Source: Candidatus Bathyarchaeota archaeon (lineage in GTDB: Archaea; Thermoproteota; Bathyarchaeia; Bathyarchaeales; Bathycorpusculaceae). From it: a DNA stretch of 64,000 nt. Shown here piece by piece: positions 2,110 to 53,877 of the stretch. A program made the translations under genes and the position numbers. Positions within the stretch are counted from its first letter, which is position 1, and the number at the start of each line of letters is the position of its first letter. The notes beneath the pieces were generated by a model, which saw nothing but the letters and a program-made list of their open reading frames with translations, was not told where the DNA came from and did no database searches. The stretch is from assembly GCA_963815095.1 (NCBI GenBank), contig CAWFFH010000004.1:32001-96000 (forward strand), read 5' to 3'.

Positions 2110-4940
2110 ATGGCAGTTGTCGAACCTGCAGCTCCAGCAATCGGCTTAATTTTTGGCGCCGTAGCCCCCCCAAACTGACGTTGTTGAACTCTTCGTGCAC
2201 TTCGGCTGCAGCAAAGAAGTAAGCAGCTATGAGGTGAAACTCATACAATTGGAATGGCAAATACAGCCCCAGCTGGAGCCTACCCAATTACAGTGGGAAT
2301 GAGATGGCTCAATCTCCCTAGGGCAGAACCCCAAACATGCCTCTAGCTTATGACGCTGCGAGTGGAAAACGTCAAGTACCACGTCAAGCCCAGACAGAAA
2401 ACTACGTCATTAGTTTCTGGTCGCTGCTGGGGTGAGCGCCTATTCCGCAGGACAGTAACTGCAAACTATACGCTCATAAAAGGCGAAGAGATCGTCAAAG
2501 ACTTGATGGATTATTATGCAGGCCTCAGCCACGTTAGAGGCGCCGTGCAACTTGTAGAAAACACAGATACAACTTATAGCTCAGTAGCTCGAATACGAGG
2601 ATTCGCCAGTATGGGATATCCTCAAATATATAGCAGAAACAGCCGACAAATCAGGAGTTATAGGCTTTGATTTCAGAGTCGCGCCGGACGGCAAATTTGA
2701 GTTTTTCCCCAAGCTACTCCAAAACAAACGCAACAGTAATAGTCGAAAACATTGATGAGTCAGCTGTGTATGAAATAGATATCATCCGAATAAGAAACAA
2801 AGTCACTGTCTATGGGTTAGCCGATAAAAGCATCCCAACGGATAAGGTATCCTGGACACGCAGCCTAACTCCCTCAGATGGCGACTGGCAGCGAGACACA
2901 GGCGCCTAACTCAATAGATGCAACAGGAGCTCCAGACGGCGGTCCATGCGTCAAAGTTGCTGTTGCCTCCAACTATTGGGGAGGCGCCTACTCTTGAGCT
3001 TCACGCAGGCAGCGAAGTAAACACAAACAAGTATCCTACCCTGGACCTGCAGCTCAAAATGGCAGACACCTATTCTGGCACAGGGGAGCTTACCATATTT
3101 GACAGCTCTCTAAGGTCAGCAGCCAAAAATATCTCAGTTTCTCCAGACGTAACTTGGCATACTCTGGAAGTAGGCGTCGGCGCAGCCTATGCTAACCAAT
3201 GGGAATTTGTCGACCCAGCTTTTGATTGGACACGTGTAAAAACCGTTCGAGTAACCTTGTATTTTCCTTCAGGCGTCGGTAGCGGAAACTTTTGGATACA
3301 TGGTCTCTATTTTGGTGGTGCTCGCTACTCTGCAGTCGTTGAAGATCTTGCAAGCCAAGCAGCCTGGACAGACGGAGAGGCACGGGAATATTCTGAGACT
3401 GATGAGGAGCTCTGGAGCGACGAGGAATGTGAACGCCGAGCAGCTTCTCTTCTGGCATATCTCAAAGACCCAGCCGAATACGTTCACGTAGTAAGTACCA
3501 TTCTAGACTATGGAACCTCGCCTATCTTGGGAGGTGATGAATTACACGTCCATCTTCCAAACGAAAAAGTAGATAGTGACTTCCGGGTGGAAAGCGCTGA
3601 ATACAGAGTACCTCAAGAAGACCCTCTAACACTCGAAATTACCTTGGATCTCGGAAAGGAACCTCCACAACTTGCCGACTTTCTATATGGCCTACGTTGC
3701 CATTCACCAAACGTGGAAAAACTTAGCAGAACCAAACTGGGCAAAAGAGGAGTTCCAATTACCTCGAACGGTAGTGGTGGCAATGGCAGCTCTATTTTTT
3801 ACAGTAACGTTGAAGTCGACAAGACAGCACCCGTGTATAATTTGTTGACTGGTCGCACGCTCAAGGCTGCATTTGGGCATGATGGCGCCAATACTTTCTT
3901 AGTTGCATATTTGGGCAGTATTGTGTTAAGGGCTCCTACGGGGCATATTTTACCTGATGATGATGGTAGCCTTGATTTGGGTGATACGTCTATAGGTAAA
4001 CGGTTTGGTTCATCTGCACCTTAAAAATGATCTTTGGGTAGCAGGGGTTCAAACTGTAGACACTTTTGGTCGTGTAGCTCTGAATAGTTTTCCAAGAGAT
4101 GATGCAGGAAAAGTGCTTGAGGCTCAAGGTACTAACTTTGCTCCAATGTACGTTGATCCAAACAACCGTTATGTTCCAGCTGCACATACCCATGAAAGCC
4201 TTGTTAGTGGTACTAGACACGTTGCGATTGACCCAGATAATGCTGTCTTGAACTTTTATGATGACGCAAACTTAAAAGGTGCCATAGGGCACGACGGAGC
4301 AAACTTTTTCGTAGTCGCATACGACGGCAATCTCATTCTCTATTCAGCAACAGGTAAGATTCTGCCCAATACTGACGGCGGCGAAGACCTTGGAACAACG
4401 AGTTCCGCTAAACGGTTCGGCTCGCTACACCTAAAAAATGACCTCTGGGTTGCAGGCGTTCAAACAATCGAGACAAGCGGCAGAGTCAACATGGCTGGAA
4501 TGCCACGAGATACAGCAGGACTGATCATAGAAGCTCAAGGCGCTGGGTTCTATCCAATGTACGTCAACCCCAACGGCAGATATACTCCTGCAGCTCACAA
4601 CCACGCCAACATATATCCTGCAGGAGGCAATAACACCGGGTCATGTGGGGACACATCGAATTATTGGCATGTAATGGCGGGAGATAGCGTCTGGTACAAT
4701 GCCCTCGGCCACATGGACTACATGGATGACTTAGCCGTTATCAAACGAATTAAAATGAGTAAAAAAGTCGATGCTCAGGGCGTTCCATTGATCGATAATA
4801 AGAGCTTGCCTGAGGAGATGCGCTCCAAATCAGGTCTTGTGCACGGTGGGCATCTTTTGGGTTTAGCGATTGGGGCGATTAAGCAGTTGAATGCGAAAGT
4901 CGAGTTTCTAGAAAAACAGTTATCAAACGCGAGTGGTTAG
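2110..4940 (+). CDS. Large baseplate hub / tail fibre protein with internal duplication and C-terminal chaperone-like coiled coil (split by indels into ORFs 2350-2670, 2667-2909, 2918-4024, 4005-4940)
   Basis: Hub-like N-terminal part (SGRCWGERLFRR, IRNKVTVYG). A ~105-aa repeat GHDGAN...HLKNDLWVAGVQT...PMYV.PN.RY.PAAH occurs twice, and the first copy straddles the ~4012 frameshift. C-terminus LAIGAIKQLNAKVEFLEKQL. Confidence 0.6.
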
Positions 4941-4953
4941 GAGGTGAAAATGA

Positions 4954-5274
4954 ATGGATTTGCAGATTCTGCTCGGTCCCTTTTTTCCCTATGTGGTCTC
5001 TATCGTTATCACATTGATGTATTCTACACTGGGTAAGACGTCCAGCGGGGAACCTTTCGATGCGAACAAGTTTTTGACGACTTTAGGCGTGCAAGTGGCT
5101 GCCCTGGTCAGCATCGGCTTTGCAGGTGAACCAAACATTACGGCATTAGCGCCCTCGGTTGTAACGGTGCTGTTCATGAAGGCATATAGTATCCACAAAA
5201 AGCGGAACGCTAGCCCAAAATCGTCACCGACTACGGTATCGATCTCGTACCAAACAGAAAAGACTACTATTTAG
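4954..5274 (+). CDS. Small membrane protein, holin-like
   Basis: 106 aa, 2-3 hydrophobic segments, basic C-terminal tail, GGAGGTGA RBS, last gene of the structural operon, followed by T-rich run. Confidence 0.45.
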   Translation: MDLQILLGPFFPYVVSIVITLMYSTLGKTSSGEPFDANKFLTTLGVQVAALVSIGFAGEPNITALAPSVVTVLFMKAYSIHKKRNASPKSSPTTVSISYQTEKTTI

Positions 5275-5453
5275 CAGCTCTTTTCTCTTTTTTTGCCATC
5301 TGATTATATCTAGTAACTGTAACAAATCGGTCATTTGAATTCACTGGCTTTCTCTTTTCATCTGTTTAAGGATATAACATTTTTCAAGCAATTTATCGAA
5401 GCAAAAACTTAAAGCTAAAAACTACAATAGATTGAGAAAAAAGGGGAAACGGA

Positions 5454-7349
5454 TTGGCTGAACTTTTGGAGTTGGATAATTTGTACGAACATCTTGAAGA
5501 GAGAGCCATCGATTACAAATATCGAGATATCGCCAACCTTTTCCAAAAAATACGCGATAAAAAGCATGTGGCGAAAAAGCCTGATTTAGAGGCAATAGCT
5601 CAATGGGAAATGAATGTTTTCAATTTCTCCGTTGCCCAAAATGTTGTTAGTCCATCTTGGACTTTTCCTGACTCGGAAGGAAAACTGGTGAGCCACCCAA
5701 CATACGATGATTTTGTTCCTACATCATATGATTATATTATCAGAAGACTCGAATCAACAAACAACCCGATGCTCAAGGCAAGATACGCTCATGTATTGTG
5801 GTTTAGCCCTAAGAAACACGGCAAATACGCACTTTTAGCAGCAGATAAGTATCTTGAACTAATTAAGTTCTACGAACAGAAAGACAAAGAAAATCCGCAA
5901 AAATACTTTGGTTTCGATGTCTTAACTGCTGTAGAAAACGCTATTCTCATTTCAAGAAATATTAATGATACGACCAGAACAGACTTAGCAAAATCGGAAG
6001 TGAAACGTCTGATTTTCAATTTCAATGCAGAAAGCACTTGTTTGTTCAGGGTTCGCTCAGATTTGTTTGGATTAATGATAAGGGAGAAAACGATATTTTC
6101 AAAAGATGATTTTACTGGCATTGGAGAACTATGCTTCAACTTTTCTAAATCATTGGGAGATCCGCATCAAGCGATCTCTATTCTGAAACTTGGCAAAATG
6201 GTTGAAGAAAAAGCAGGAATAACCATCTACAACTGGGACGAATTGATTGCGGAATCATATGAAAAAATGATGAACGCGAACCTACAAAATAACAAACATG
6301 TTGCCATTGAATTTTGTGGCAAAGCGTTAGAGTATTACCAGCTTGCAAAAAATGAAAAGAAAAGCGAAAAACTAGAAGCTATTTACACAGAATTAAGCGG
6401 AAGCCTTGAATTCCCAAAAATTGAGGTTGAGATTGACCTTAAAGAATACATCGTTGACTGTGAAGAAAAAGTAACAAAATTGATGAAGTTTACATCTGAA
6501 CAAATAATTGGCTTCATTATGACGGATAAAAACTTGCTACCCGATTATACCGTGACAAAAGAGTTAACACAGAAAATCTTAAAACAGTTTCAGATGCAAG
6601 CTATTCTTCCAATAACTCTTACCGATGAGCAGGGACATACCGCTCAATGCTTCACAACAACACAAGAAATTGAAGTCTATCATACACTTCATCAATATCA
6701 TATGATTCTTGAGAACTATTGTTTGCGCTTTCTAAATATGGTATTCATTGAAGGATTGAAAGAGAACAAAATAACATATGAAGCGCTTATGGAATTTTTT
6801 CAAAAGTACAGCTGGTTCGGCAAAACTATTCCTAAAAAAAGATTCAATAAAGAGGTTCCAGACAATTGGTTAAGCTTGTTAGCGCCATCATTGTTTGAAT
6901 ATTTCGCTCAAATGGATTATTGGAGGGTTTCGGGAAATTATCCAAACTTAGTCTTGTGCATCGATTCATTGGTATTAAAGATTGAAGGATTACTTAGAGA
7001 AATGTTCTTTTTCAATGGTATAGCCACTTTTACTTCAAAGGCAGACAAGAAACATGGAAAGAGAATTACTTATGAAAAGGAATTAAATGCTCTTTTGAAC
7101 GAGAAAAGAATAAGCGAGTTGTTTGACCCTGATGACCTTTTGTTGTTCAAATTTGTACTCATAGAAAAAACAGGATACAATTTAAGGCATAAGATAGCGC
7201 ATTCCTTGATGCGTAGTGTTGAATATCAAATTCACTACATGCATCTCTTGATACTCATACTGCTGAAACTCAGCAGTTACAATCTAACAATAACGAGAAA
7301 AACTGAATCTAAAGAAAAATGTGAGTCAAAACCGAGTGAATCTAATTGA
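5454..7349 (+). CDS. DUF4209-like protein with C-terminal HEPN-type RxxxxH motif (putative defence moron)
   Basis: 631 aa, AT-rich, own promoter (AAAAACTTAAAG ~5403). LVLKIEGLLR...GYNLRHKIAHSLM matches DUF4209/HEPN motifs. Confidence 0.7.
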   Translation: MAELLELDNLYEHLEERAIDYKYRDIANLFQKIRDKKHVAKKPDLEAIAQWEMNVFNFSVAQNVVSPSWTFPDSEGKLVSHPTYDDFVPTSYDYIIRRLESTNNPMLKARYAHVLWFSPKKHGKYALLAADKYLELIKFYEQKDKENPQKYFGFDVLTAVENAILISRNINDTTRTDLAKSEVKRLIFNFNAESTCLFRVRSDLFGLMIREKTIFSKDDFTGIGELCFNFSKSLGDPHQAISILKLGKMVEEKAGITIYNWDELIAESYEKMMNANLQNNKHVAIEFCGKALEYYQLAKNEKKSEKLEAIYTELSGSLEFPKIEVEIDLKEYIVDCEEKVTKLMKFTSEQIIGFIMTDKNLLPDYTVTKELTQKILKQFQMQAILPITLTDEQGHTAQCFTTTQEIEVYHTLHQYHMILENYCLRFLNMVFIEGLKENKITYEALMEFFQKYSWFGKTIPKKRFNKEVPDNWLSLLAPSLFEYFAQMDYWRVSGNYPNLVLCIDSLVLKIEGLLREMFFFNGIATFTSKADKKHGKRITYEKELNALLNEKRISELFDPDDLLLFKFVLIEKTGYNLRHKIAHSLMRSVEYQIHYMHLLILILLKLSSYNLTITRKTESKEKCESKPSESN

Positions 7350-7852
7350 ACGATTTAATCTTCAAATGCAAAAAATGCGGTACTTGCTGCCGAGGTCTTT
7401 TTGTCGAAGAATTTGGCATGTTGCAGGGATTGTGCTTAACTGAAGAAGAGACGAAAGAGTTTGACTCAAAATTCATTATGCCTTACATCGCTATTGGTTA
7501 TAAGGAACCAACAACCATCGTATATTATCAGCTTATCCTTGCGGATTGCCCACATCTAAATGAGAAAAATGAATGCAAAATTTATGAAAAAAGACCCCTA
7601 ATTTGTAGAGTGTTCCCTATTCACCCTGATATTAATCATACCGTAATTCTACCGAAATGCCCTCAAATTGAAAAGCATTGGAGCCGAGAAGGGGAAATTT
7701 GCCCTGTAGCTATTGAGGATGATGAGATAGAAGGCGCTTTAACGAGGTTGAACATCCGTTCCCTAACTCACAGGAAAGAATGTTTAGAGAAGGGTTTGCA
7801 TTTCTGGTATTTTGATTTGGCGACGAAAAAATGGAATTCATCAAATAAATGA
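7346..7852 (+). CDS. YkgJ-family CxxCxxCC cysteine-cluster protein
   Basis: CKKCGTCC...CPHL...CKIYEKRPLICRVFP. Confidence 0.85.
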   Translation: MNDLIFKCKKCGTCCRGLFVEEFGMLQGLCLTEEETKEFDSKFIMPYIAIGYKEPTTIVYYQLILADCPHLNEKNECKIYEKRPLICRVFPIHPDINHTVILPKCPQIEKHWSREGEICPVAIEDDEIEGALTRLNIRSLTHRKECLEKGLHFWYFDLATKKWNSSNK

Positions 7853-7886
7853 GGATAACTTTTTGAATATTCCGCTGAAGCACGTT

Positions 7887-8276
7887 TTAGTCTCTTAGGC
7901 GTTTTTGTGCTTCCTGGCTGACTTGGAAGCTGTAGGTCACGTAGGTATAGTAGCGTACATTGCTGTAATCGGTTGATGAATCTACGTCTTCGCGATTGTA
8001 AGCAGCTAAAATAGTTTCTAATTCGTCTAGTAGCTTTTGCCCTGCCTCTGAGGTTCTAATAGTGGTGAAGCTGGAATCAGGGGCTATTCTCTCTTTTCTA
8101 TATGGCTGGAAGTCTTTGGGGATTGCGGTAACTTCGATTTTTATGGAGCTATAGTGTTCGGTGACTACGCTGACTTTGATTTCAGGGTGCTTTTCGCGGA
8201 TTTCTGCTTTGACTTTTTTGGCGATTTCTTTTAGTGGTAGATGCTTGGTTCCTTGGTATTGTAAGCCTTCAAACAT
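7887..8276 (-). CDS. LPD29-like (large polyvalent protein domain) early protein
   Basis: IAKKVKAEIREKHPEIKVSV...YNREDVDSSTDY pattern, as recalled for LPD29. Confidence 0.55.
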   Translation of the reverse strand: MFEGLQYQGTKHLPLKEIAKKVKAEIREKHPEIKVSVVTEHYSSIKIEVTAIPKDFQPYRKERIAPDSSFTTIRTSEAGQKLLDELETILAAYNREDVDSSTDYSNVRYYTYVTYSFQVSQEAQKRLRD

Positions 8277-8619
8277 TAGAATCTTCTCCGTTTAGTTGCG
8301 GATATTTGCCGTTCTCGTTTGCAATGCAGCTTGGGCATTTGGACATATAATGTAGAAATTTGGAGTGGTCGAATGTAATTACGCAAACTTGGAGTCCCCC
8401 GTTTCCGTCAGGGCTAACTTGATAGTATTTGTCGTCAAGATCAACAACTACTGTTATTTCTTCATGGCTTGTTTCTTCGCTACGTGGAATAACAAGGTCA
8501 AAATCGCCAAATATGCGACTGATATTGGTGAACTTTTTTGTACTTTCACGGTATTGTGGGAAAGATTGGTATTCAGTGAAGAATATCGGTTTATTTATTC
8601 GGTTTTCTGTTTTATTCAT
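8269..8619 (-). CDS. Hypothetical viral protein
   Basis: 116 aa, overlaps the next gene by 8 bp, C-terminal CPSC. Confidence 0.55.
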   Translation of the reverse strand: MNKTENRINKPIFFTEYQSFPQYRESTKKFTNISRIFGDFDLVIPRSEETSHEEITVVVDLDDKYYQVSPDGNGGLQVCVITFDHSKFLHYMSKCPSCIANENGKYPQLNGEDSNV

Positions 8620-9063
8620 TTTTTTCGCCTTCTTTTCCCCAGTTAGGCAAGCTAGCTGAGGTTGAAAAGAAACGTAAAACGTGATGACTTCTCTAAGAGT
8701 CTGAAAGTTGTTAGACGTCTGTTGATAACTTTTAGCTTAACTTACTGGAAAAGCATGTTTTTTCTAGGCTAAGCTTGATGAGAGCTTGCTTTGAAAGGGT
8801 ACTTTTTATAAAAATATAAAATAGCTGAGCGTTTTTTCTCTTAAGTTATTTTTTAGCTAAAACGTTATTTCTAGTCTAGCATCTAGGCGCCGAAGAGAGA
8901 TTTTATTGCTAAGCTTAGCTCTAGTCTTTCTAGTAAAAGTTTTTAGAGTTTTTATTAAGCGTTAAAGTATTAAATCTAACTAGTAGACTAGTTCTAGCCT
9001 TAGACTTTCTAAAAAAACTAGCCTTAACGCTTAAGCTTAGTCGCTCTCTTTTTCGCATAATCT

Positions 9064-9080
9064 TACTGTAATTTACAGTA
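9064..9080. promoter_or_regulatory. 17-bp palindromic operator (distal) TACTGTAA-T-TTACAGTA
   Basis: Perfect palindrome matching the three sites at 9803-9951; abuts TATA-like TTATAAG 9082-9088. Confidence 0.75.
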
Positions 9081-9149
9081 GTTATAAGCTTTTGTCAGCA
9101 AAACAGGATAAAGATTAAGCGGTAAAACGGGCACATAGCAAGCGGAGAC

Positions 9150-9305
9150 TTGATTGTGGAAAGCGACTATAAGTGCAAGAAATGCGGTTTTACGTTCCCC
9201 AAAGAAGGCGCCAACATCAGCGGCGGAGAGAGCTATCTCTACGGGTTCCATGTGCACTGCCCAAAATGCGAAGCAGTTGTAGAGCAGTTTGTTAAGCCTA
9301 ATTAA
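9150..9305 (+). CDS. 51-aa zinc-ribbon protein (below ORF track cutoff)
   Basis: TTG start after GGAG; MIVESDYKCKKCGF...HVHCPKCEAVVEQFVKPN*. Confidence 0.65.
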   Translation: MIVESDYKCKKCGFTFPKEGANISGGESYLYGFHVHCPKCEAVVEQFVKPN

Positions 9306-9517
9306 TTTTCATAAAAGTTAAATGTTGAATGCTCAAATCAAAGAGTAGAGGGCGATAACTCAGTTGAGCAACTTAAAACTTAGAGGTAGTTTTAATTCTC
9401 ATCATACTGTTATGCAAATAACGATTCTATTCTGGTTAACTGCCCCGTTTTTTGGGCTAGGTGTTGATGATTTTGCTGGGGGGTATCTGTTGGATCATAA
9501 ACACTTGAGAGATCTGT

Positions 9518-9646
9518 TTGCACGACAATAACGAAGTTGAGCTTGAAATCACCGAGGATTTATACAATAAAATTGAGGATTGCGCAAAATCTAAGGGTTT
9601 AAGTGTTGATGATTTCCTTTCATCTGTTCTTCGACCACCTGGTTGA
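9518..9646 (+). CDS. 42-aa RHH-like protein (below ORF track cutoff)
   Basis: MHDNNEVELEITEDLYNKIEDCAKSKGLSVDDFLSSVLRPPG*: strand-helix-G-x-S-helix RHH pattern. Confidence 0.55.
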   Translation: MHDNNEVELEITEDLYNKIEDCAKSKGLSVDDFLSSVLRPPG

Positions 9647-9785
9647 GTTGATAGGTGACGTAACCGGTGAAACTGTTGATGCCTTTTTTTATTAGCCATT
9701 CTTTTTGGGCTTTTTTATACTGGTTCATAAAATAATCGTAGACGTCTTTTTTGACAGTTATGCTCATGTAGCCTTTTTCAGGCAA
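9591..9785 (-). CDS. RHH-like regulator, leftward member of switch (putative repressor)
   Basis: MPEKGYMSITVKKDVYDYF...KGINSFTGYVTYQL; divergent from 9982 gene. Confidence 0.7.
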   Translation of the reverse strand: MPEKGYMSITVKKDVYDYFMNQYKKAQKEWLIKKGINSFTGYVTYQLNQVVEEQMKGNHQHLNP

Positions 9786-9802
9786 TTATCTCGCTTCCCT
9801 TC

Positions 9803-9819
9803 TACCGTAATTTACTATA
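9803..9819. promoter_or_regulatory. Operator TACCGTAA-T-TTACTATA
   Basis: Matches consensus TACYGTAA-N-TTACRGTA; overlaps expected start of leftward transcript (minus-strand TTTAAATA at 9839-9846). Confidence 0.7.
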
Positions 9820-9880
9820 TAGAAATTTACGTTTAGAGTATTTAAAGAATATTACTTTTTTCTCAAGATATCACGCTCAC

Positions 9881-9897
9881 TACTGTAAGTTACGGTA
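9881..9897. promoter_or_regulatory. Operator TACTGTAA-G-TTACGGTA
   Basis: Near-perfect palindrome directly upstream of rightward TATA CTTATAAA 9901-9908 (BRE position). Confidence 0.75.
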
Positions 9898-9934
9898 AAC
9901 CTTATAAAGAAAACTCTCCCAATTAGCAAATAAC

Positions 9935-9951
9935 TACCGTAACTTAAGGTA
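9935..9951. promoter_or_regulatory. Operator TACCGTAA-C-TTAAGGTA
   Basis: One mismatch from palindrome; at expected rightward transcription start. Confidence 0.75.
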
Positions 9952-9981
9952 ATGGAAGAGAGAGAAACGAGGTAAAAAACA

Positions 9982-10164
9982 ATGCCTGTGGAAGGTTTCA
10001 AAACTATAACGGTCAGCCAAGAAGTCTATGATAAAATAGAAAACTTTGCTGAAAAAACACATCGCAGCGTTCCCAAGGCAGTTGAGTTTCTTATGGAAAA
10101 AGCGGATGTAGCCCGTAGACGACAAGAAAAACGAAACGCCCAGGAGAGTCGGACTAACGGTTAA
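9982..10164 (+). CDS. RHH-like regulator, rightward member of switch (putative Cro-like)
   Basis: MPVEGFKTITVSQEVYDKIENFAEKTHRSVPKAVEFLM; GAGGT RBS; first gene of the operon ending in the integrase. Confidence 0.75.
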   Translation: MPVEGFKTITVSQEVYDKIENFAEKTHRSVPKAVEFLMEKADVARRRQEKRNAQESRTNG

Positions 10165-10295
10165 GCAGGCGAATTCTTGGGGAACAGGTTTGTTGAGGAC
10201 ACCACCTTTAGAGCGGCCAGCTTTAAGCTCGCTTTCATACTCCTCCGCCGTCCTAAACAAGAATTCTGCTTTAAACTTGGAAGGTTGGAACTTTC

Positions 10296-10484
10296 ATGGA
10301 AAAAACCGCTGTTATAGAAGAGAGTAAGGGGTTTTCTCAGCTTTTAGATAGGGTTTGGTGCCCTATTTGTGGCGGAGAATTAGAAGTCAAGAAAATCGAT
10401 GGTAAGCGTATTCTAAATTGTACCAGGGATGGAGCGATGAAGGCTTACCTTGACAAAGACCCAAAAGTTGGAAGTGAGAGTTGA
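10296..10484 (+). CDS. Small Zn-finger-like viral protein
   Basis: CPICGG...C motif, operon-coupled. Confidence 0.55.
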   Translation: MEKTAVIEESKGFSQLLDRVWCPICGGELEVKKIDGKRILNCTRDGAMKAYLDKDPKVGSES

Positions 10485-10708
10485 TGCCTGAAGAAATTCT
10501 GCTAAAATATGCTGGACAGTCAACGACTAAGCGGAAGGATAAAGAAGGCAACATAATTTCCGTGCATACCGTGCGCCTACAGGACGATAGAAAACACTTT
10601 AAACTAAGCATTAGTAGCGGCGACGAATCGCTCTTTGAGCATTACGATGAAGACTGTGAACTGCCGATTATTCTGGGAAAAAGCAGCCAAACAAAGCTAA
10701 CGGAGTAA
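10481..10708 (+). CDS. Hypothetical viral protein
   Basis: 75 aa, coupled stop/start, C-terminal QTKL. Confidence 0.55.
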   Translation: MMPEEILLKYAGQSTTKRKDKEGNIISVHTVRLQDDRKHFKLSISSGDESLFEHYDEDCELPIILGKSSQTKLTE

Positions 10709-10710
10709 TT

Positions 10711-10923
10711 TTGTTGTCGGCGTCCTCTGTTAAGTCTGAGAGTTTGCTTGATTTTCTCAGGCCTCAAAAGCACAAAACACCGAATTCTGGGTCTGAATCG
10801 AGTAAGCTCAGAAAACAGTTTTTTATAAATGCGGAGTGCCGCCAATGCCAATACAAAGGTTCTCAATACTGCTGGAATACTTGTTCCATTAATACTTTGA
10901 AGAAATCGGGAGGCGCCTATTAG
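10711..10923 (+). CDS. Small Cys-rich viral protein
   Basis: CRQC...CWNTC. Confidence 0.45.
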   Translation: MLSASSVKSESLLDFLRPQKHKTPNSGSESSKLRKQFFINAECRQCQYKGSQYCWNTCSINTLKKSGGAY

Positions 10924-10924
10924 A

Positions 10925-11290
10925 ATGCCCCGAAAGCCACTTTGGGTTAGGCTGCTGTTAATGCCGTTTCTTTTGCCTCTTGCTGGGGTGGGCTGGGTAA
11001 TGTTCTATTTTGGCTCTAAAAAAACGGAAGCTGTGGGTGGAGTGGATAAGACTTTACCGCCTTGCGCGAGAGGGAGCTTTGACTGCAAAAACTGCCCTAA
11101 GCCCATGGTAGCTCTAAGCGGAAGCGGCGATTTGGCGCCTTGCGATGGAACGATTTATTTCTGCAAGTTTGCCACAGCCAGCACCACGACTCCAGCTTGT
11201 CCTCGGTATAACCTACAAAATTATGCTTGCACGCATGGCGGGGGATCTTGCGTAGGATACAAGAAAAGGAGAAATTACTATGCCTTTTAG
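10925..11290 (+). CDS. Membrane-anchored Cys-rich viral protein
   Basis: N-terminal TM segment followed by many Cys. Confidence 0.5.
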   Translation: MPRKPLWVRLLLMPFLLPLAGVGWVMFYFGSKKTEAVGGVDKTLPPCARGSFDCKNCPKPMVALSGSGDLAPCDGTIYFCKFATASTTTPACPRYNLQNYACTHGGGSCVGYKKRRNYYAF

Positions 11291-11513
11291 CATTGACTTT
11301 TCAAAAGATAAACCTACCCAGGACAAATTCAAGCAAGATTTAGGTTTCTGTCCGCGATGCAAAGACCCAATTCAGCCAGAGCATATCGAAGGTTATGCAA
11401 GCCGATCTGTCGACGGAGTGTTGTTCTGCACTCTTTGCGCTTGGCACCTCGAAGGCGATCCAAACGAACGGAAAAAATGGGCAAAATTGGCAAAAGCGGA
11501 GGCTTCTATTTGA
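11280..11513 (+). CDS. Zn-finger viral protein
   Basis: CPRC...CTLC. Confidence 0.6.
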   Translation: MPFSIDFSKDKPTQDKFKQDLGFCPRCKDPIQPEHIEGYASRSVDGVLFCTLCAWHLEGDPNERKKWAKLAKAEASI

Positions 11514-13405
11514 TGGCTAGTGAGGAGGGAAAAGTTGGCTTGCATTCTAAGAGCTTTCGCCCACGCAAAGCCGGTGAGGATAGTTGCAAGTCAGTTACTA
11601 CCATAACTGCCGGCGCCAGCTCCCAAATCCTCAAATCTGTTTATGTCAGGTATAGAGACCACGCCTTTTTCAGGAATGTTCAGTCACCCGTAGTTGAAGC
11701 GGTAATTCGGGAAGCGTTGGGCTGGGTTAAAAAAGAGAATGATGAGGTTATGCTTATCGAGTGTGATAGACCTCTTCTGGAGGGCTTCAGTGGCTTTAAT
11801 GGTGTGGTTATTCTTAAAAACTGCATCGTTTCCATGGTTGAGTTGCCGCTGGACCGTTTTTCAAGTGGAACTTTAAATTGTTCGGCTGTTAAAGAGAGAG
11901 TGAGTACTGCGCTTCTAGCCAAAAGAAGCGAAAAACTCACCCCTAAAAACAAGCGGAAGGGGCAAGAATTGATAGAGCGAAAAACGCAACCTATAGTAAT
12001 AGAGCGAAAACGTAACCTCACCGTTGATGACCTAAAAAAACTCAATCTGCCACTGCAATTCCAAGGCAAATTCGTCATTATCGAGAAAACCTTGAACAAC
12101 ATACGACTGCAAAATCCTCTTAGCTTAGAGCTCAGCAAAATCTTAGCAACCGGAGAAACAGGACTCGTAGACTACATCATACGCAGCTGCCTCAACAAGT
12201 ACCCCAACATTATTCCCTACATCTTTGAACATCAAAGCATGGTAAGGATGTCCCGGCACTTTCTACGTTACTGCTGCGGTTCTCTTGAGAGCTGTCCCAC
12301 ATATGCACTGCGATTCAAAAAATATGCTGACTGGCTCGGATACAGCCCTGATTTAATCATCCAAGATGTCAAACCTGTTGGCGCAATTCCCGATCCCCTA
12401 AAAGTGCAAAACCACTGTGGATTCTTAAGCGACTACTTAGCCGCCCTACAAGACAGCGATCTTAAGCCAGGCGCAGTCTGCAACTACATTAAAACAGTCA
12501 AAACCTTCTATCGCACCAATGGAGTAAAAAAAATTGAACTAGACGAACCCTTGAGCCGAAAAGTATCTCACAAAGACAGAGCACCCAAACCCGAGGAACT
12601 CTCGGTAATGCTAGATAAAGCCGCTACCCGTGAAAGCTTTGTCATCGCAGGCGTTGCAACAGGAGGCTTCAGAGAAGGCACCTTTTCCAAACTGAAATAC
12701 CGCCACGTCAAAGAAGACTTAGAAGCCGGACGCGTACCCATCCACATCCATATCGAAGCCAGCATTACCAAGGGTAAATACCACGATTATGATACATTCC
12801 TGAACGCTGAAGCCAGTCATTTCCTCAGATTATACATAGAGGAAAGAAGACAAGGCACCGATGGAATGCCGCCAGAAACAATTACCGACGAATCGCCACT
12901 GGTAAGAAACAGCCACGTCGCAAACAGAGTCTTAGCCGTCAGCGAAAAAACCATCCGAAAAATCGTCCATGACTCCGCTGTCGAAGCAAAGGTCGCAAAA
13001 AAACTACCTAACAGCTGGATGTATAGCGTTAGAACCCATAGCTTAAGAAAATTCTTCAGAACCCAATTAAGCGCGGCAAAAATCGACGACGAAATCATCA
13101 AGTACATGATGGGAAAAACAATCGATACCTACGAAGATGTTCAGAGCTTGGGCATTGAAACCCTTAGAAACCTATATTCAGCCGCAGGATTAGCCATCAG
13201 AGCGAAAACCAAAGTAAACCGCATTGATCAACTCAAAGAAATCATACGCGGCTGGGGAGAAAACCCCGAGGAAATTCTCGCCAAAGATATCTTGATACGT
13301 AGCAATCAGACGGTCGAAACAGACGAACAGATTCAGAACCATCAGTTATCCGTTCTAGCAACCGAACTTAAGCAGATTATCCGCAAGGAGGTTACGGAAA
13401 AATAA
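11513..13405 (+). CDS. int: Tyrosine recombinase/integrase with ~150-aa in-frame N-terminal extension (likely starts: ATG 11513 and TTG 11969)
   Basis: GFREGT (R), TKGK (K), HSLRKFF (HxxR), YMMGK...DTY (Y); adjacent to att. Confidence 0.9.
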   Translation: MASEEGKVGLHSKSFRPRKAGEDSCKSVTTITAGASSQILKSVYVRYRDHAFFRNVQSPVVEAVIREALGWVKKENDEVMLIECDRPLLEGFSGFNGVVILKNCIVSMVELPLDRFSSGTLNCSAVKERVSTALLAKRSEKLTPKNKRKGQELIERKTQPIVIERKRNLTVDDLKKLNLPLQFQGKFVIIEKTLNNIRLQNPLSLELSKILATGETGLVDYIIRSCLNKYPNIIPYIFEHQSMVRMSRHFLRYCCGSLESCPTYALRFKKYADWLGYSPDLIIQDVKPVGAIPDPLKVQNHCGFLSDYLAALQDSDLKPGAVCNYIKTVKTFYRTNGVKKIELDEPLSRKVSHKDRAPKPEELSVMLDKAATRESFVIAGVATGGFREGTFSKLKYRHVKEDLEAGRVPIHIHIEASITKGKYHDYDTFLNAEASHFLRLYIEERRQGTDGMPPETITDESPLVRNSHVANRVLAVSEKTIRKIVHDSAVEAKVAKKLPNSWMYSVRTHSLRKFFRTQLSAAKIDDEIIKYMMGKTIDTYEDVQSLGIETLRNLYSAAGLAIRAKTKVNRIDQLKEIIRGWGENPEEILAKDILIRSNQTVETDEQIQNHQLSVLATELKQIIRKEVTEK

Positions 13406-13440
13406 CCCACAAAAATAGTACTTACGCCCATATAACACTG

Positions 13441-13458
13441 CGAGTCCCTCCGGACCCG
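13441..13458 (+). repeat. attR core, copy 1: CGAGTCCCTCCGGACCCG (tRNA T-arm/acceptor 3' end, Arg-like)
   Basis: 35 bp after integrase stop; matches tRNA 3' pattern CGA(A/G)TCCC-TC-CGGACCC-G. Confidence 0.7.
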
Positions 13459-13517
13459 TTGCTGTCCTAAGAATTTATACTGAATAAATCAATAGTACAA
13501 ATGCTCTTGCACAGCAA

Positions 13518-13535
13518 CGAATCCCTCCGGACCGC
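13518..13535 (+). repeat. Second degenerate att/tRNA 3'-end copy: CGAATCCCTCCGGACCGC
   Basis: Direct repeat of 13441-13458, 77 bp downstream. Confidence 0.65.
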
Positions 13536-13638
13536 TCAATTTTCTTCTCACTTGTTATTGCGTTTTGAAGTCACATACAGTAAATAATCAGGTCCCCGTC
13601 TTTTATTTTGAGTTTTTGTTGGATGCAATCTCAGGTTT

Positions 13639-14265
13639 TTGGCGGTTGCTTTGAATAAGAAGGTTTTTTCTCGGTTCCGAAAAGATAGGGAGGAAGCTCT
13701 TACTGACGGCATATTTGCAACGGTCATGACTATTTTAGTGCTTAGTTTGGTGGTGCCTACCGTAACGGGCCCAAACGCTTCTGCAACATTACAAGCCGAC
13801 GTTTACAATCTTATACCAGACCTGCTTGCTTATATTGTTACTTTTGTTTTTCTTGGTGTACTTTGGATAAGCCACCAGAATATGTTTAGTCACATCGAAA
13901 TCATTGATCTTAGAGTTTTATGGATAAACATATTTTTGCTGCTTAGCGTTGCGCTTGCCCCTTTTTCAACTGCGCTTCTTGGCAGATATCCTCTGCAACC
14001 TATCGCGGTCCTTGCTTATGGGGTAAATGCATTGGCAGTTTCAATATTATTTAACATTCTATGGTTCTATCCGCGAATTCAGCACTTGACGCATGAGGAA
14101 CCAAACCAAGAAGTTATTTTAAAAAGGAGTCGAATTGTTATTGTTGGGCCTTTCGCTTATAGTTTAGCTATTATTTTCTCCTTTGTGGCGCCTGTGGTCA
14201 GTTTGGGATTGTATGCTTTTGTGACGGTATTCTACCTTATTTTCGGAGGAAGATATTTCCATTGA
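13639..14265 (+). CDS. TMEM175-family potassium channel
   Basis: REEALTDGIFATVMTILVL, W...HQ, LWINIFLL motifs. Confidence 0.85.
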   Translation: MAVALNKKVFSRFRKDREEALTDGIFATVMTILVLSLVVPTVTGPNASATLQADVYNLIPDLLAYIVTFVFLGVLWISHQNMFSHIEIIDLRVLWINIFLLLSVALAPFSTALLGRYPLQPIAVLAYGVNALAVSILFNILWFYPRIQHLTHEEPNQEVILKRSRIVIVGPFAYSLAIIFSFVAPVVSLGLYAFVTVFYLIFGGRYFH

Positions 14266-14374
14266 CAAAATCCGCTTTTGCAATAAACCAAAAAACAGTT
14301 AATCTGTATCTATTGGCTTAGCAAATCTTAAATCTGCCTTCCTTTGCATAAGGAAGTGAGAAGGAAGCGATATC

Positions 14375-15325
14375 ATGGTAGATATACTCTTAGTCTTAGC
14401 AATAGTTGTCCCCTTAATTGTAGTTGTATATGCATTAATTTCGTCTCTGCGAATTGTTAGGCCAACCGAAAAAGGTTTGGTGGAGAGGCTTGGCAAATAC
14501 CGCCGGTTTGTCGAAGGAGGCGTAACATTTCTTTTTCCCTTTATTGATCGCATAATAAAAGTTAACGTTACCGAACGGATGACTCCTGTTCAGCGCCAAG
14601 ATGTGATTACCAAAGACAAAGTTTTCATGGGCGTAGATGCCGTCGTATTTTACAGAATCAAACCAGACGAAGTATCAGTTAAGGCGTCACAGTATGCTGT
14701 CGCAAGTTTTGCTGCTCAAATTGACACTCTTGCACGAACAGTTCTAAGAGACATCATAGGCGGCATGGACATGAGCGTAGCCAACACATCGCGACCCATA
14801 ATCAATGCCAGCCTAAAAACAGCCCTAGACGAGCAGACCGAAAAATGGGGTATCGAAATAGTAAGGGCAGAAATCAAGGACCTTGAACCCCCAAGAGAAC
14901 TCATCATATCAATGGAGTCCGTGCTCAAAGCAGACAACGACCGCCAAGCAGCCGAGAAAACCGCCATAGCACAAGCTACATTGGCAGGAGGACAGAAAAA
15001 CGCAGCGATTCAAGTTGCTGAAGGACAAAAACAAGCGGCGATTCTTCAAGCTGAAGGCCAAAAAACTGCTACAATTGCTATAGCTGAAGGCGACGCCCAA
15101 GCAACCAAACTACGCAACGAAGCATTAACCACCTACTTCAAAGATAGTGCCATAACATTCAAGCAGCTGGATACGATTTCCGCATCATTGCAAAACAATA
15201 CAAAGATAATTGTTCCAGAAGGGAAAGCTATTTCACTGATACTCAATGAGCAGGAGAATCTTACAAAAGCAACCATCCTCCCAATACCCCCACCGCCGAC
15301 TCAGAAAAGCAGCAAACAAATGTAA
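14375..15325 (+). CDS. SPFH/band 7/PHB domain protein
   Basis: N-terminal TM, VERLGKY, QDVITKD, WGIEIVRAEIKD, AEG repeats. Confidence 0.9.
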   Translation: MVDILLVLAIVVPLIVVVYALISSLRIVRPTEKGLVERLGKYRRFVEGGVTFLFPFIDRIIKVNVTERMTPVQRQDVITKDKVFMGVDAVVFYRIKPDEVSVKASQYAVASFAAQIDTLARTVLRDIIGGMDMSVANTSRPIINASLKTALDEQTEKWGIEIVRAEIKDLEPPRELIISMESVLKADNDRQAAEKTAIAQATLAGGQKNAAIQVAEGQKQAAILQAEGQKTATIAIAEGDAQATKLRNEALTTYFKDSAITFKQLDTISASLQNNTKIIVPEGKAISLILNEQENLTKATILPIPPPPTQKSSKQM

Positions 15326-51579: not shown

Positions 51580-52920
51580 AACTTGTTAATGTCCAGTTCC
51601 AAACTCTTTTCTCTATCACTTTTTAGACTATATGAAAGACGAGTGAGAAAGTAACTCTTGCTGGCTAGTCCGGTGCCTTCTTGGCCCTTGCGGCCGATTT
51701 TTAGACTGGGCTTGACCTGAGCTGCTATAGAACTGGGCATTCGCCCGTATGAGAGATTGCAGCCTGAAAGCCAGCAGGAGAAAGAAAAAAAATGGTGAGA
51801 TATGTAGGAGTAGATGTTGGCAAAGCCAAATGCAGAGCAGCAATAATGAATCAAACCGGCGCCATCGAGAGCGAATTCTTCTTTGAAAACAACACTAAAG
51901 GAATAGAGTCTTTGACGTCTATGCTAACTGTTGAGGATCAGGTTGTTATGGAATCTACAGGGAATTTGTGGCTAAGCATATACGATGCATTGGATAATAG
52001 AAGCATTAAGGTAGTGCTGGCTAATCCATTGAAGACTAAAGTGATAGCTTCAGCGAAAATAAAAACTGATAAGGTGGATGCTAGGATTTTGGCGCATTTG
52101 CTGAGAGCTGATCTTGTTGCTGAAAGCTATGTTCCGCAAGGAAGCATACGTGAAATGCGAGGTTTAGTTAGGCATAGGCTGAGCTTGGTTAGAATGCGCA
52201 CGGCTATAAAGAACAAGGCACATGCAATCGTTGACAAGTATAGTTATCGTTGTGAATTCTCAGATATGTTCGGTAAAGGTGGAATTGCTTGGATGAGGTC
52301 ACTGATACTTAATGAGCTTGATAGACTGATTTTGGAAAACCATCTTTCGCTGATTGAATCTATTAACTTGCAGGTCGGGATGGTGGATAAAGCTATTCGA
52401 AAAATCGCTTGTGAGGATGAGGATGTTCGGTTGCTACTTAGCTTGACTGGTGTTGATGTTTATGGTGCATTGTTGATTCATAGTGAAATTGGTCCGATAA
52501 CGCGGTTTAGTAGTTATAAGAAGTTGATTTCTTGGGCTGGTTTGGCTCCGTCGGTGCATCAATCTGGGAATGTTGAGTATACTGGTAGGATTACTAAGCG
52601 TGGTTCTAGCTTGTTGAGGTGGGTTATGGTTGAGGCTGCGAGGACTGCTGTGCAGTATCATGAGAAATTGGCTGGGTTTTATGAGCGTGTGAGGGCTAGG
52701 CGTGGTGATCAGAAGGCTGCTGTTGCTGTTGCTTGTAAGATGCTTAAGATTGTTTGGTTCATGCTAAGTAGGCGTGAGGTCTATAGCTGTGCTAATACGA
52801 GGCGTTATGGAGAAAAGCTAAAAAAGATTGGTGCGTAGTTTGGTTTACTGGCTTTCAGGATAAGTTGGTCGCTGGCTTAGAGAACCGTCTTTCATGAGAG
52901 AAGGCATCGAAAAAACCGCT
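51580..52920 (+). mobile_element. IS110-family element (boundaries approximate)
   Basis: Transposase plus structured non-coding flanks; no TSD found. Confidence 0.75.
51792..52838 (+). CDS. IS110-family DEDD transposase/recombinase
   Basis: GVDVGK, VMESTG, KTDKVDA, GLAPSVHQSG, ITKRGS. Confidence 0.95.
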   Translation: MVRYVGVDVGKAKCRAAIMNQTGAIESEFFFENNTKGIESLTSMLTVEDQVVMESTGNLWLSIYDALDNRSIKVVLANPLKTKVIASAKIKTDKVDARILAHLLRADLVAESYVPQGSIREMRGLVRHRLSLVRMRTAIKNKAHAIVDKYSYRCEFSDMFGKGGIAWMRSLILNELDRLILENHLSLIESINLQVGMVDKAIRKIACEDEDVRLLLSLTGVDVYGALLIHSEIGPITRFSSYKKLISWAGLAPSVHQSGNVEYTGRITKRGSSLLRWVMVEAARTAVQYHEKLAGFYERVRARRGDQKAAVAVACKMLKIVWFMLSRREVYSCANTRRYGEKLKKIGA

Positions 52921-53044
52921 GATTAATTCAATGACCTTTTTAACGTAGGCTGTTATAATTCTCTTTTGTCAAGAAATGTTGACTTGGATTAGTCAAGATT
53001 TCTTTACGAATAATCTTTTATGTAATCCAAATTTGTTATTAATT

Positions 53045-53778
53045 ATGAGCAATTTAACTAAGAGTTTCTCGTTGCTAATTATACTAGTTTTAGCAGCGTC
53101 AATAGTGATCATAGTTAAACCTTCAAGTGCTCAAACAGCCACTTCTATGCCTTCAAATATTCCTATACCTGTAAGACCAGAGTTTACCTTACAACTTATT
53201 GGTCCGCCTTTTGTTGAGAATACCACTTATTCATTAGACCCCAATACGGGACAAATTGTTGCAAACATTGGCTACACTAACCCATTCAGCATTGTTGAAA
53301 TAATTATCAAGAATCAACCTTTTACTCCATTTAACGACAATCAAGGTAATCCTATTTCAATGTTCTATAATGTTCAAGTGGCAGTTCATAACCAAACAGA
53401 TAGCTGGATTAGTCTTTATGACCCGATTCTGGCGACCTTGCACCAAGCACTGCTGATTCTGATTACACCAATATATCATTGTGGTTGAATAACGGTCCGC
53501 TTCCTGTCGGAACTACTAATATTGATGTTCAAGTCGAGGCATTCATAGGTTATGTTCATAAAAGTAATGAGGGATATCTTGCGGGTTGGGTATTTACTGG
53601 TGAATCAAACGGTTGGAACACGCAAACAGTAACTGTACCTTCTAACACTCCCTTAAGTGTTAATTCACCAAACACAACTAACTCAATTGGCAACCTAATC
53701 ACTATACCTTTGAGTACATTAATTGCGATTTTTACAATATTCTTAACCATTATCGTTGTTCTGGCACTTGCTTTTTAG
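53045..53778 (+). CDS. Secreted/membrane-anchored protein (frameshift ~53425)
   Basis: Signal peptide, PEFTL, IIIKNQPF, GESNGWN, C-terminal TM. Confidence 0.55.
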
Positions 53779-53877
53779 AAAACATCGAAACCCAGATAAA
53801 GTAAATCACCCGACCTTTTCCCATTAGTTCTAAATTCTTTTAAGCAGAATCACGTAATTATTTATTGATTATTCGGG

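Follow-up and report, generated by a model that had tools for sequence, protein, structure and literature searches.

By its features, the locus at 51627-52898 of the window (the whole stretch of 64,000 nucleotides that was analysed) belongs to the IS1111 type of the IS110 superfamily; the genome is that of a member of the Bathyarchaeia. The explanation that best accounts for the observations below, and that we hold to be probable, is an IS1111-type element with a complete guide RNA in its left end and, in its right end, two modules competing with P1, the closing stem of this RNA. The RNA-guided insertion sequence is itself of a known kind; the addition made here is the right-end modules that pair with the closing stem. 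Bridge/seek-RNA recombinases are under development as programmable genome-writing tools. All features are given on the plus strand.

Relatives used for comparison

Relatives were sought by tblastn, taking the best 80 of 130 matches of a genome scan and the best 80 of 493 matches of a metagenome scan. Among the best 80 of 130, the closest public-genome relatives were Bathyarchaeia MAGs. The matches fell in 159 loci. Of these, 45 combined an identity of 56% or more with both end motifs and a left flank of 18 nt. Alignment A1 consists of the 43 unique elements out of these 45; loci cut by contig ends, loci below 56% identity and two duplicates were left out. Since the 43 sequences are related, the permutation counts given below overstate independence.

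True ends and target site of the element

The genome (2.69 Mb) holds four copies of an element of 1274 bp plus a 2-bp core, AG. Their identity to one another spans 51619 to about 52914, which overshoots the element. The element proper extends from 51627 to 52898, with one core AG on each side (51625-26 and 52899-900), which gives a left end (LE) of 165 nt (51627-51791) and a right end (RE) of 62 nt (52839-52900). The initial annotation had placed the limits at 51600 and 52915, but the outer segments are host target DNA: the left target flank LT, CTTTTT (51619-51624), is common to the four copies no further than the guide dictates, and the right target flank RT, AAGGCATCGAAAAA (52901-52914), is the match of the right-target guide.

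The position of the core was deduced from the relatives. The first loop of the left-end RNA (see below) matches both flanks: its 3′ side repeats, in sense orientation, the segment directly left of (T)TATGAAAGAC, and its 5′ side is the antisense of the segment directly right of CATGAG. The match of the second-loop 3′ side (AUGAG-AG) shares precisely 2 bases with that of the first-loop 5′ side (antisense of AG-AAGGCA). These bases are AG in this element but TG in a different subclade, and the partners all change in concert, so that the core is AG or TG in step across the LE tip, the RE tip and three guides. A two-base overlap of guide matches is how the core dinucleotide behaves in the bridge-RNA systems described by Durrant et al. 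(2024, PMC11208160), hence the assignment of the core to AG at 51625-26, where the left-donor and right-target guide matches overlap by 2 nt, and at 52899-900, where the element ends.

Four independent checks agree on these ends. A metagenomic relative, L106, whose protein is 98% identical, shares the right side only up to ...CATGAGAG. Unoccupied sites, which the initial annotation had proposed to look for, exist in the genome and support the AG-bounded ends: RT AAGGCATCGAAAAA adjoins TTTAG without an element at C4:5454-73 and C6:95306-25, the sequence at the former being CTTTT-AG-AAGGCATCGAAAA, and the left and right flanks are contiguous there. Copy L004 is without 3 nt inside the apparent right end, a difference that keeps the frame of a 468-codon host ORF, which reads LLLFRRRK, not LLLFRRHRK. 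Finally, a contig from another study has the same right flank, then diverges. The possibility that the flank-matching segments are element DNA and donor guides was discarded, as the strand rule does not fit and unoccupied sites exist; it is also contradicted by the in-frame difference of L004 and by the divergence of L106 after CATGAGAG.

Several observations concern the insertion sites. Three of the four copies (L002, L003 and L004) are inserted 10-14 codons before the stop of ORFs of 355-468 codons. Their insertion point is in a basic tail (...LLLFRRHRK) past a C-terminal hydrophobic helix, and the insertion swaps the host tail for RLYERRVRK-stop. A near-target, TTTTTAGAAAACATCGAAAC (window 53772-53791), stands at the end of ORF 53479-53778. 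The guides of L106 are those of the window copy, and its right flank, CAAGGTTTGAAAGC, is a poor fit to the right-target guide; this looks like a half-match or off-target insertion. The right flanks of L001, L004, L086, L090 and L091 share a loose motif beyond the guide-specified target (window 52915-52960), made of AACCNCTAAC... and, ∼30-45 nt after it, AGACCTTTT. This motif could be a common 3′-UTR/terminator or another small repeat. A 41-nt stretch of the right flank (window 52959-53000) recurs at 93% identity on G000:C8:18654-18694 and is unrelated to the element.

A guide RNA in the left end

The same fold was obtained from RNAfold on this copy, from RNAalifold on the 43 left ends and from RNAalifold on whole elements. 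The closing stem P1 (51655-66 with 51769-80) bears two units, 51667-51712 and 51721-51763, in a three-way junction. For the left-end structure and the inverted repeat together, 95.8% of 1887 cells were paired in A1 (43 relatives), compared to 90.7% in shuffles, none of which reached the observed value (0/500), and 33-44% with slid partners; 18 pairs were changed on both sides. Within P1, the 5′ strand, A (51655-51666), makes 12 pairs with 51769-80, 90.9% paired, and 7 pairs are changed on both sides. The 3′ strand, B (51769-80, with GGAG at 51777-80), forms with a linker the segment 51763-51780, of which nucleotides 51763-74 are complementary to right-end module A′ (see below).

The first unit (51667-51712) holds the target-binding loop, and its two stems are 93.7% and 99.5% paired. 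The right-target guide (51671-81) is on the 5′ side of the loop, the left-target guide (51698-707) on the 3′ side, and a hairpin (51682-96) stands between them. Over the 43 elements, the longest exact match between guide and flank was 8.60 for cognate versus 4.35 for non-cognate combinations on the left, and 6.16 versus 3.64 on the right. The second unit (51721-51763), with the donor-binding loop, has both stems 100% paired. Its right-donor guide UAUAG (51726-30) follows the NNNTA at 51628-32 in relatives, UANNN tracking NNNTA (CTATA/UAUAG here, CCTTA/UAAGG and GTTTA/UAAAC in relatives); a hairpin (51734-47) comes next, then the left-donor guide AUGAGAG (51749-55), which as AUGAG[A/U]G follows the RE tip in relatives. 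The guides thus covary with flanks and ends, as the initial annotation had suggested examining, with a donor signal that is weak by longest exact match (7.44 versus 6.18, and 3.93 versus 3.63). That annotation had drawn two stem/internal-loop/hairpin units in the left end: the one at 51721-51763 was retained, whereas the one at 51627-51670 gives way to the real unit at 51667-51712. Among the motifs that it saw recurring at both ends, ATGAGAGA corresponds to the left-donor guide and its donor, and TA(T/G)AGAAC is without covariation.

With both guide loops and the covarying P1 wholly in the left end, the predicted bridge/seek RNA is complete in this upstream non-coding region, and not split between the two ends as first supposed. 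An Rfam search of the locus gave nothing relevant, only 3 chance matches with E from 0.3 to 5. The match of the left-target guide (51698-707 versus 51620-51629) does not stop at the core but covers it and the first 3 nt of the element (ACU = 51627-29), as it does in most relatives, which recalls the 'handshake guides' of IS621. Of the 43 elements, 25 have the Shine-Dalgarno (SD) motif nearest to the start fully in B, 6 have it partly there and 6 outside, and in the remaining 6 no such motif was found. It is conceivable that the left repeat, TTTATGAAAG, also serves as a TATA box from which transcription would begin near 51655. From an estuary metatranscriptome comes a contig of 151 nt that matches window 51676-51825 with 2 differences and 1 insertion; it covers the 3′ part of the guide RNA and the start of the ORF, and may be DNA carry-over.

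Family placement

The transposase gene (51792-52838) encodes 348 aa, with DEDD_Tnp_IS110 (PF01548, 4.6e-28) followed by Transposase_20 (PF02371, 1.2e-21), both above curated cut-offs. NF033542 (NCBIfam, IS110 family RNA-guided transposase) scores 243 bits, for a cut-off of 140. These matches agree with the IS110 identity given in the initial annotation. The RNA hallmark of the superfamily, loops complementary to target and donor around a shared core, was found over the 43 elements. In plasmid relatives, the transposases are annotated merely as 'IS110 family transposase'.

In the account of Siddiquee et al. (2024, PMC11187229), IS1111 elements differ from IS110 by their subterminal inverted repeats (7-17 bp), by a transposase of 330-350 aa with the motif GL-P----S(t)G, by a non-coding region (NCR) usually located downstream, and by a seekRNA whose top-strand match is 5′ of the bottom-strand match. 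Here the repeat has 10-12 bp, and up to 16 bp in relatives; the protein, of 348 aa, has a C-terminal GL-P----SG read as WAGLAPSVHQSG / AGLAPSVHQSG in translation; and the guides are in the IS1111 order, 51671-81 being antisense to RT and 51698-707 the sense of LT. There is no long downstream NCR, as RE is shorter than LE (62 versus 165 nt) and the guide RNA is upstream; the same authors mention an upstream NCR in 'a few' IS1111 members, e.g. ISMtsp17. We conclude that the element is IS1111-type by its repeat, protein motif and guide order, an assignment by features and not by tree placement.

With the seekRNA-bearing ISEc11, ISPa11 and ISKpn4 described in PMC11187229, the element shares these traits of its DEDD transposase, its repeats and its guide order, as well as a specific target and the lack of duplication beyond the core. 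Unlike them, it has its guide RNA upstream of the gene, an archaeal host, and a short downstream region with two modules complementary to the closing stem. The bridge RNA of IS621, as presented by Durrant et al. (PMC11208160), is likewise an upstream RNA with target- and donor-binding internal loops, in which the left guides are directed at the bottom strand and the right guides at the top strand. The differences are that here the loop sides are swapped, with the right guide 5′ and the left guide 3′ in each loop, that both loop units are on one closing stem, and that the repeat has 10-12 bp, not 2-3 bp, with a core AG/TG. The loop sides and the repeat length set the element apart from the IS621-like IS110 group.

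Complementarities between the two ends

A scan of one end against the other returned 51763-74/52848-59 (12 bp, perfect), 51632-41/52886-95 (10 bp perfect, 11 with a G-U) and 51671-82/52898-909 (12 bp, one of them a G-U). When the right end was shuffled 2000 times with dinucleotides preserved, Watson-Crick helices of 12 bp or more appeared 3 times, and two helices of at least 10 bp once. As a set, the left/right complementarities are not chance, and they are four different things. The initial annotation had taken them together as RNA pairing that encloses the ORF, and one of its four helices can be kept as such: 51763-74/52848-59 is conserved, plus-strand-specific and covarying in the 43 elements. 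The 51671-81/52899-909 match exists in the letters, but it opposes the right-target guide to host DNA kept at the junction, an ordinary guide-to-target recognition of the sort already described, and is no end-to-end RNA. The complementarity of 51632-41 and 52886-95 is also real, but is the conserved subterminal inverted repeat of IS1111-type elements: the left repeat TATGAAAGACG (51631-51641) makes 11 pairs with 52886-96, 7 of them invariant and the other 4 covarying, with 96.6% paired over the 43 elements, and in the right repeat CGTCTTTCATG (52886-52896), TTTCATGAG is invariant in the 43 elements. The last helix, ∼51698-51717/52867-83, is a chance match, its variants being paired in just 50-76% of cells among the 43 relatives. 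As for the pseudoknot, it came from mixing the DNA inverted repeat with the guide-to-target match, and is without meaning as RNA.

The guide fixes ∼20 nt of the target, so that copies share host flank sequence; as a result the apparent ends overshoot, and guide-to-flank matches mimic end-to-end RNA helices. The lesson for annotation is that the apparent ends of guide-targeted copies can overshoot the true ends.

Two right-end modules complementary to P1

Module A′ (52848-52859) begins 9 nt past the stop codon, in the 3′ UTR, and is complementary to 51763-74, i.e. to the linker and the first half of B. Module B′ (52871-52882), missed by the initial annotation, is complementary to A (51655-65). 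In this copy B′ is weak (CUCU/AGAG plus GCUGGC/GCUGGC with two G-U), and it is absent from the junction MFE of this copy. A′:B, A:B′ and the repeat are nested, and both A′:B and A:B′ exclude P1.

Cognate ends pair better than non-cognate ones. In the 43 elements, duplex energies for cognate versus non-cognate combinations were −22.20 versus −19.59 kcal/mol for A′:B, −14.23 versus −10.90 for A:B′, and −17.97 versus −15.25 for P1 (A:B), with 0/5000 permutations in each case. Among 20 representatives with less than 80% ORF identity, each of the three gave 0/20000. The three controls A′ × B′, A × A′ and loop × B′ had no cognate advantage (counts of 1486, 1685 and 4795 among them for 5000 permutations; 2180-14729 of 20000 with the representatives). 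By this measure the two pairings covary between the ends, and a right-end hairpin A′:B′ was rejected for want of cognate advantage. Folding favours the plus over the minus strand in 38/43 elements for A′:B, 37/43 for A:B′ and 42/43 for P1, and the A columns 45-50 paired to B′ display 4-5 pair types per column. By raw alignment columns A′:B is only 81% paired, partly via a gap shift, and an ungapped column-diagonal scan, hampered by gaps, was used as a lead only. Duplex z-scores computed for 60 × 60 nt in every clade told us nothing, since chance alone yields loop-rich duplexes. Judged by its letters and their variation, the right end does appear to carry two modules that compete with both P1 strands.

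Predicted folds and other clades

The circle-junction RNA was folded as the sequence from the stop codon to the core, joined to the post-core sequence through the start codon, with a per-sequence MFE. Of these 43 junction folds, 38 contained A′:B, 30 contained A:B′ and 29 had the two pairings together; P1 was formed in 3 and a repeat hairpin in all 43. In full-length linear folds, where an MFE over 1.2 kb is unreliable, A′:B was found in 20/43, P1 in 11/43 and neither in 12/43. The RNAalifold consensus picks P1, not A′:B, for the junction alignment as well as for the whole element. A search for a read or contig across the RE|LE circle junction found none; stretches without contig cover carry no weight here.

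A sister clade from metagenomes (L165-L175, 43-47% aa identity) has the same layout with different sequences. Its repeat has 16 bp (TATGAGAAACGTTTTC / GAAAATGTTTCTCATA), its 17-bp P1 swallows the RBS, and an A′-like module stands directly 3′ of the stop codon. An A′:B-like pairing is kept in 3 of the 8 folded loci, and P1 in 5 of 8 junction folds. Three haloarchaeal relatives, examined as single sequences, had the repeat only and no A′/B′-type pairing. These elements (L186-L188, on haloarchaeal plasmids, 40-46% aa identity) have NCRs of ∼200 nt both up- and downstream, and repeats of 13-15 bp; they fit the 'NCR at both ends' type recorded for ISHvo10 (PMC11187229).

Discussion

The conserved complementarities suggest an RNA with two mutually exclusive states. 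In state I, the folded guide RNA with P1 would occlude the SD sequence. In state II, made of A:B′ and A′:B, the 3′ UTR would invade P1, tie the transcript ends together and free the SD sequence; in a circle-junction transcript, the same pairings would instead close the RE|LE RNA into a rod. The comparisons establish the limits of the element, the identity of its guides, P1, and that A′:B and A:B′ are conserved and covary; we infer that A′:B and A:B′ form in vivo and that they have a regulatory role.

There is a precedent in ISPpu9, where the RBS is buried in a structured 5′ UTR and translation rises when an RNA pairs with this UTR (Gomez-Garcia et al. 2021, PMC8450116; PMC12288879). According to these sources, ISPpu9 resembles the present element as an IS110-family member with a long structured 5′ UTR that holds the bridge RNA, with an AG recombination site, and with an RNA gene downstream of the transposase gene, which we count as a likeness. 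It differs in that its opener is an antisense sRNA acting in trans, Asr9, and that the downstream Ssr9 pairs with that sRNA and not with the UTR, whereas here the putative openers would be 3′-UTR segments acting in cis and pairing with both stem strands. Since P1 usually hides the SD sequence, and given this precedent, a cis-acting 3′-UTR antagonist of P1 is the reading that we favour: the right-end modules may act against P1 so as to expose the ribosome-binding site. P1 does not hide the SD motif everywhere, however, as the motif is outside P1 or was not found in 12/43 elements.

Other readings of the modules were weighed against this one. The functional guide RNA might be assembled from both ends, either as a junction transcript, in the order A′, B′, repeat hairpin, A, loops, B, or through a right-end fragment clamping the left-end RNA. 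The prevalence of A′:B, A:B′ and the repeat hairpin in junction folds and the covariation of both pairings speak for such an assembly, as does the fact that in IS1111 elements the seekRNA is normally where A′ and B′ sit here, and that a long seekRNA, whose role is unknown, is reported in PMC11187229. We nevertheless find it unlikely, as both guide loops and the covarying P1 are in the left end alone, consensus folds prefer P1, no junction contig was seen, no known promoter stands upstream of A′, and a left-end RNA alone suffices in IS621 and ISEc21 according to PMC11208160 and PMC11187229. Another way of giving the junction a role would be that the modules make the fold of the guide RNA report the template from which it was transcribed. 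A transcript starting in the integrated left end would fold P1 first, and one crossing the junction would meet A′ and B′ first and form the RE|LE rod, whose third arm would be the junction hairpin. Such a directionality switch is distinctly improbable in our estimation.

The matches could also act as DNA, as extended end-recognition sites or as structure in a single-stranded top-strand intermediate. The subterminal repeat is indeed a DNA feature of IS1111 elements (PMC11187229), and one proposal for an IS110 is a copy-out, top-strand route (bioRxiv 10.1101/2025.10.25.684509). Yet G-U pairs are common (e.g. U-G in 30/43 at alignment columns 168/1290), the minus strand pairs worse for both modules, as it does for bona fide RNA stems, and A′ and B′ are 40-50 nt inside the end, beyond the repeat, so this reading is very unlikely. 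Slimmer still is the chance that the modules are kept for some other reason, such as a transcript 3′ end or a protein site, and that the complementarity to P1 is a by-product of GCUGGC. This motif, which can pair with itself through G-U, is present at 51660-65, 52849-54 and 52871-76, and makes up much of A:B′ in this copy; but covariation is found outside this core, in the A columns 45-50, and A′ × B′ and A × A′ are without cognate advantage.

In the literature searched, to which supplementary data did not belong, we found no description of right-end modules complementary to the closing stem. The extended data of Durrant et al. and the supplementary phylogeny of Siddiquee et al. could already show IS1111 elements with an upstream NCR, or right-end features.

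The element documents an archaeal IS1111-type lineage with an upstream guide RNA, and it bears on the natural control of guide-RNA folding, transposase translation and reaction direction. If the directionality switch were true, the two folds would differ in translation or in excision-versus-insertion activity, and the element would have built-in directionality. If the antagonism to P1 is true, a conserved pair of 3′-UTR modules directed against both strands of the closing stem would be a simple, transplantable control element.
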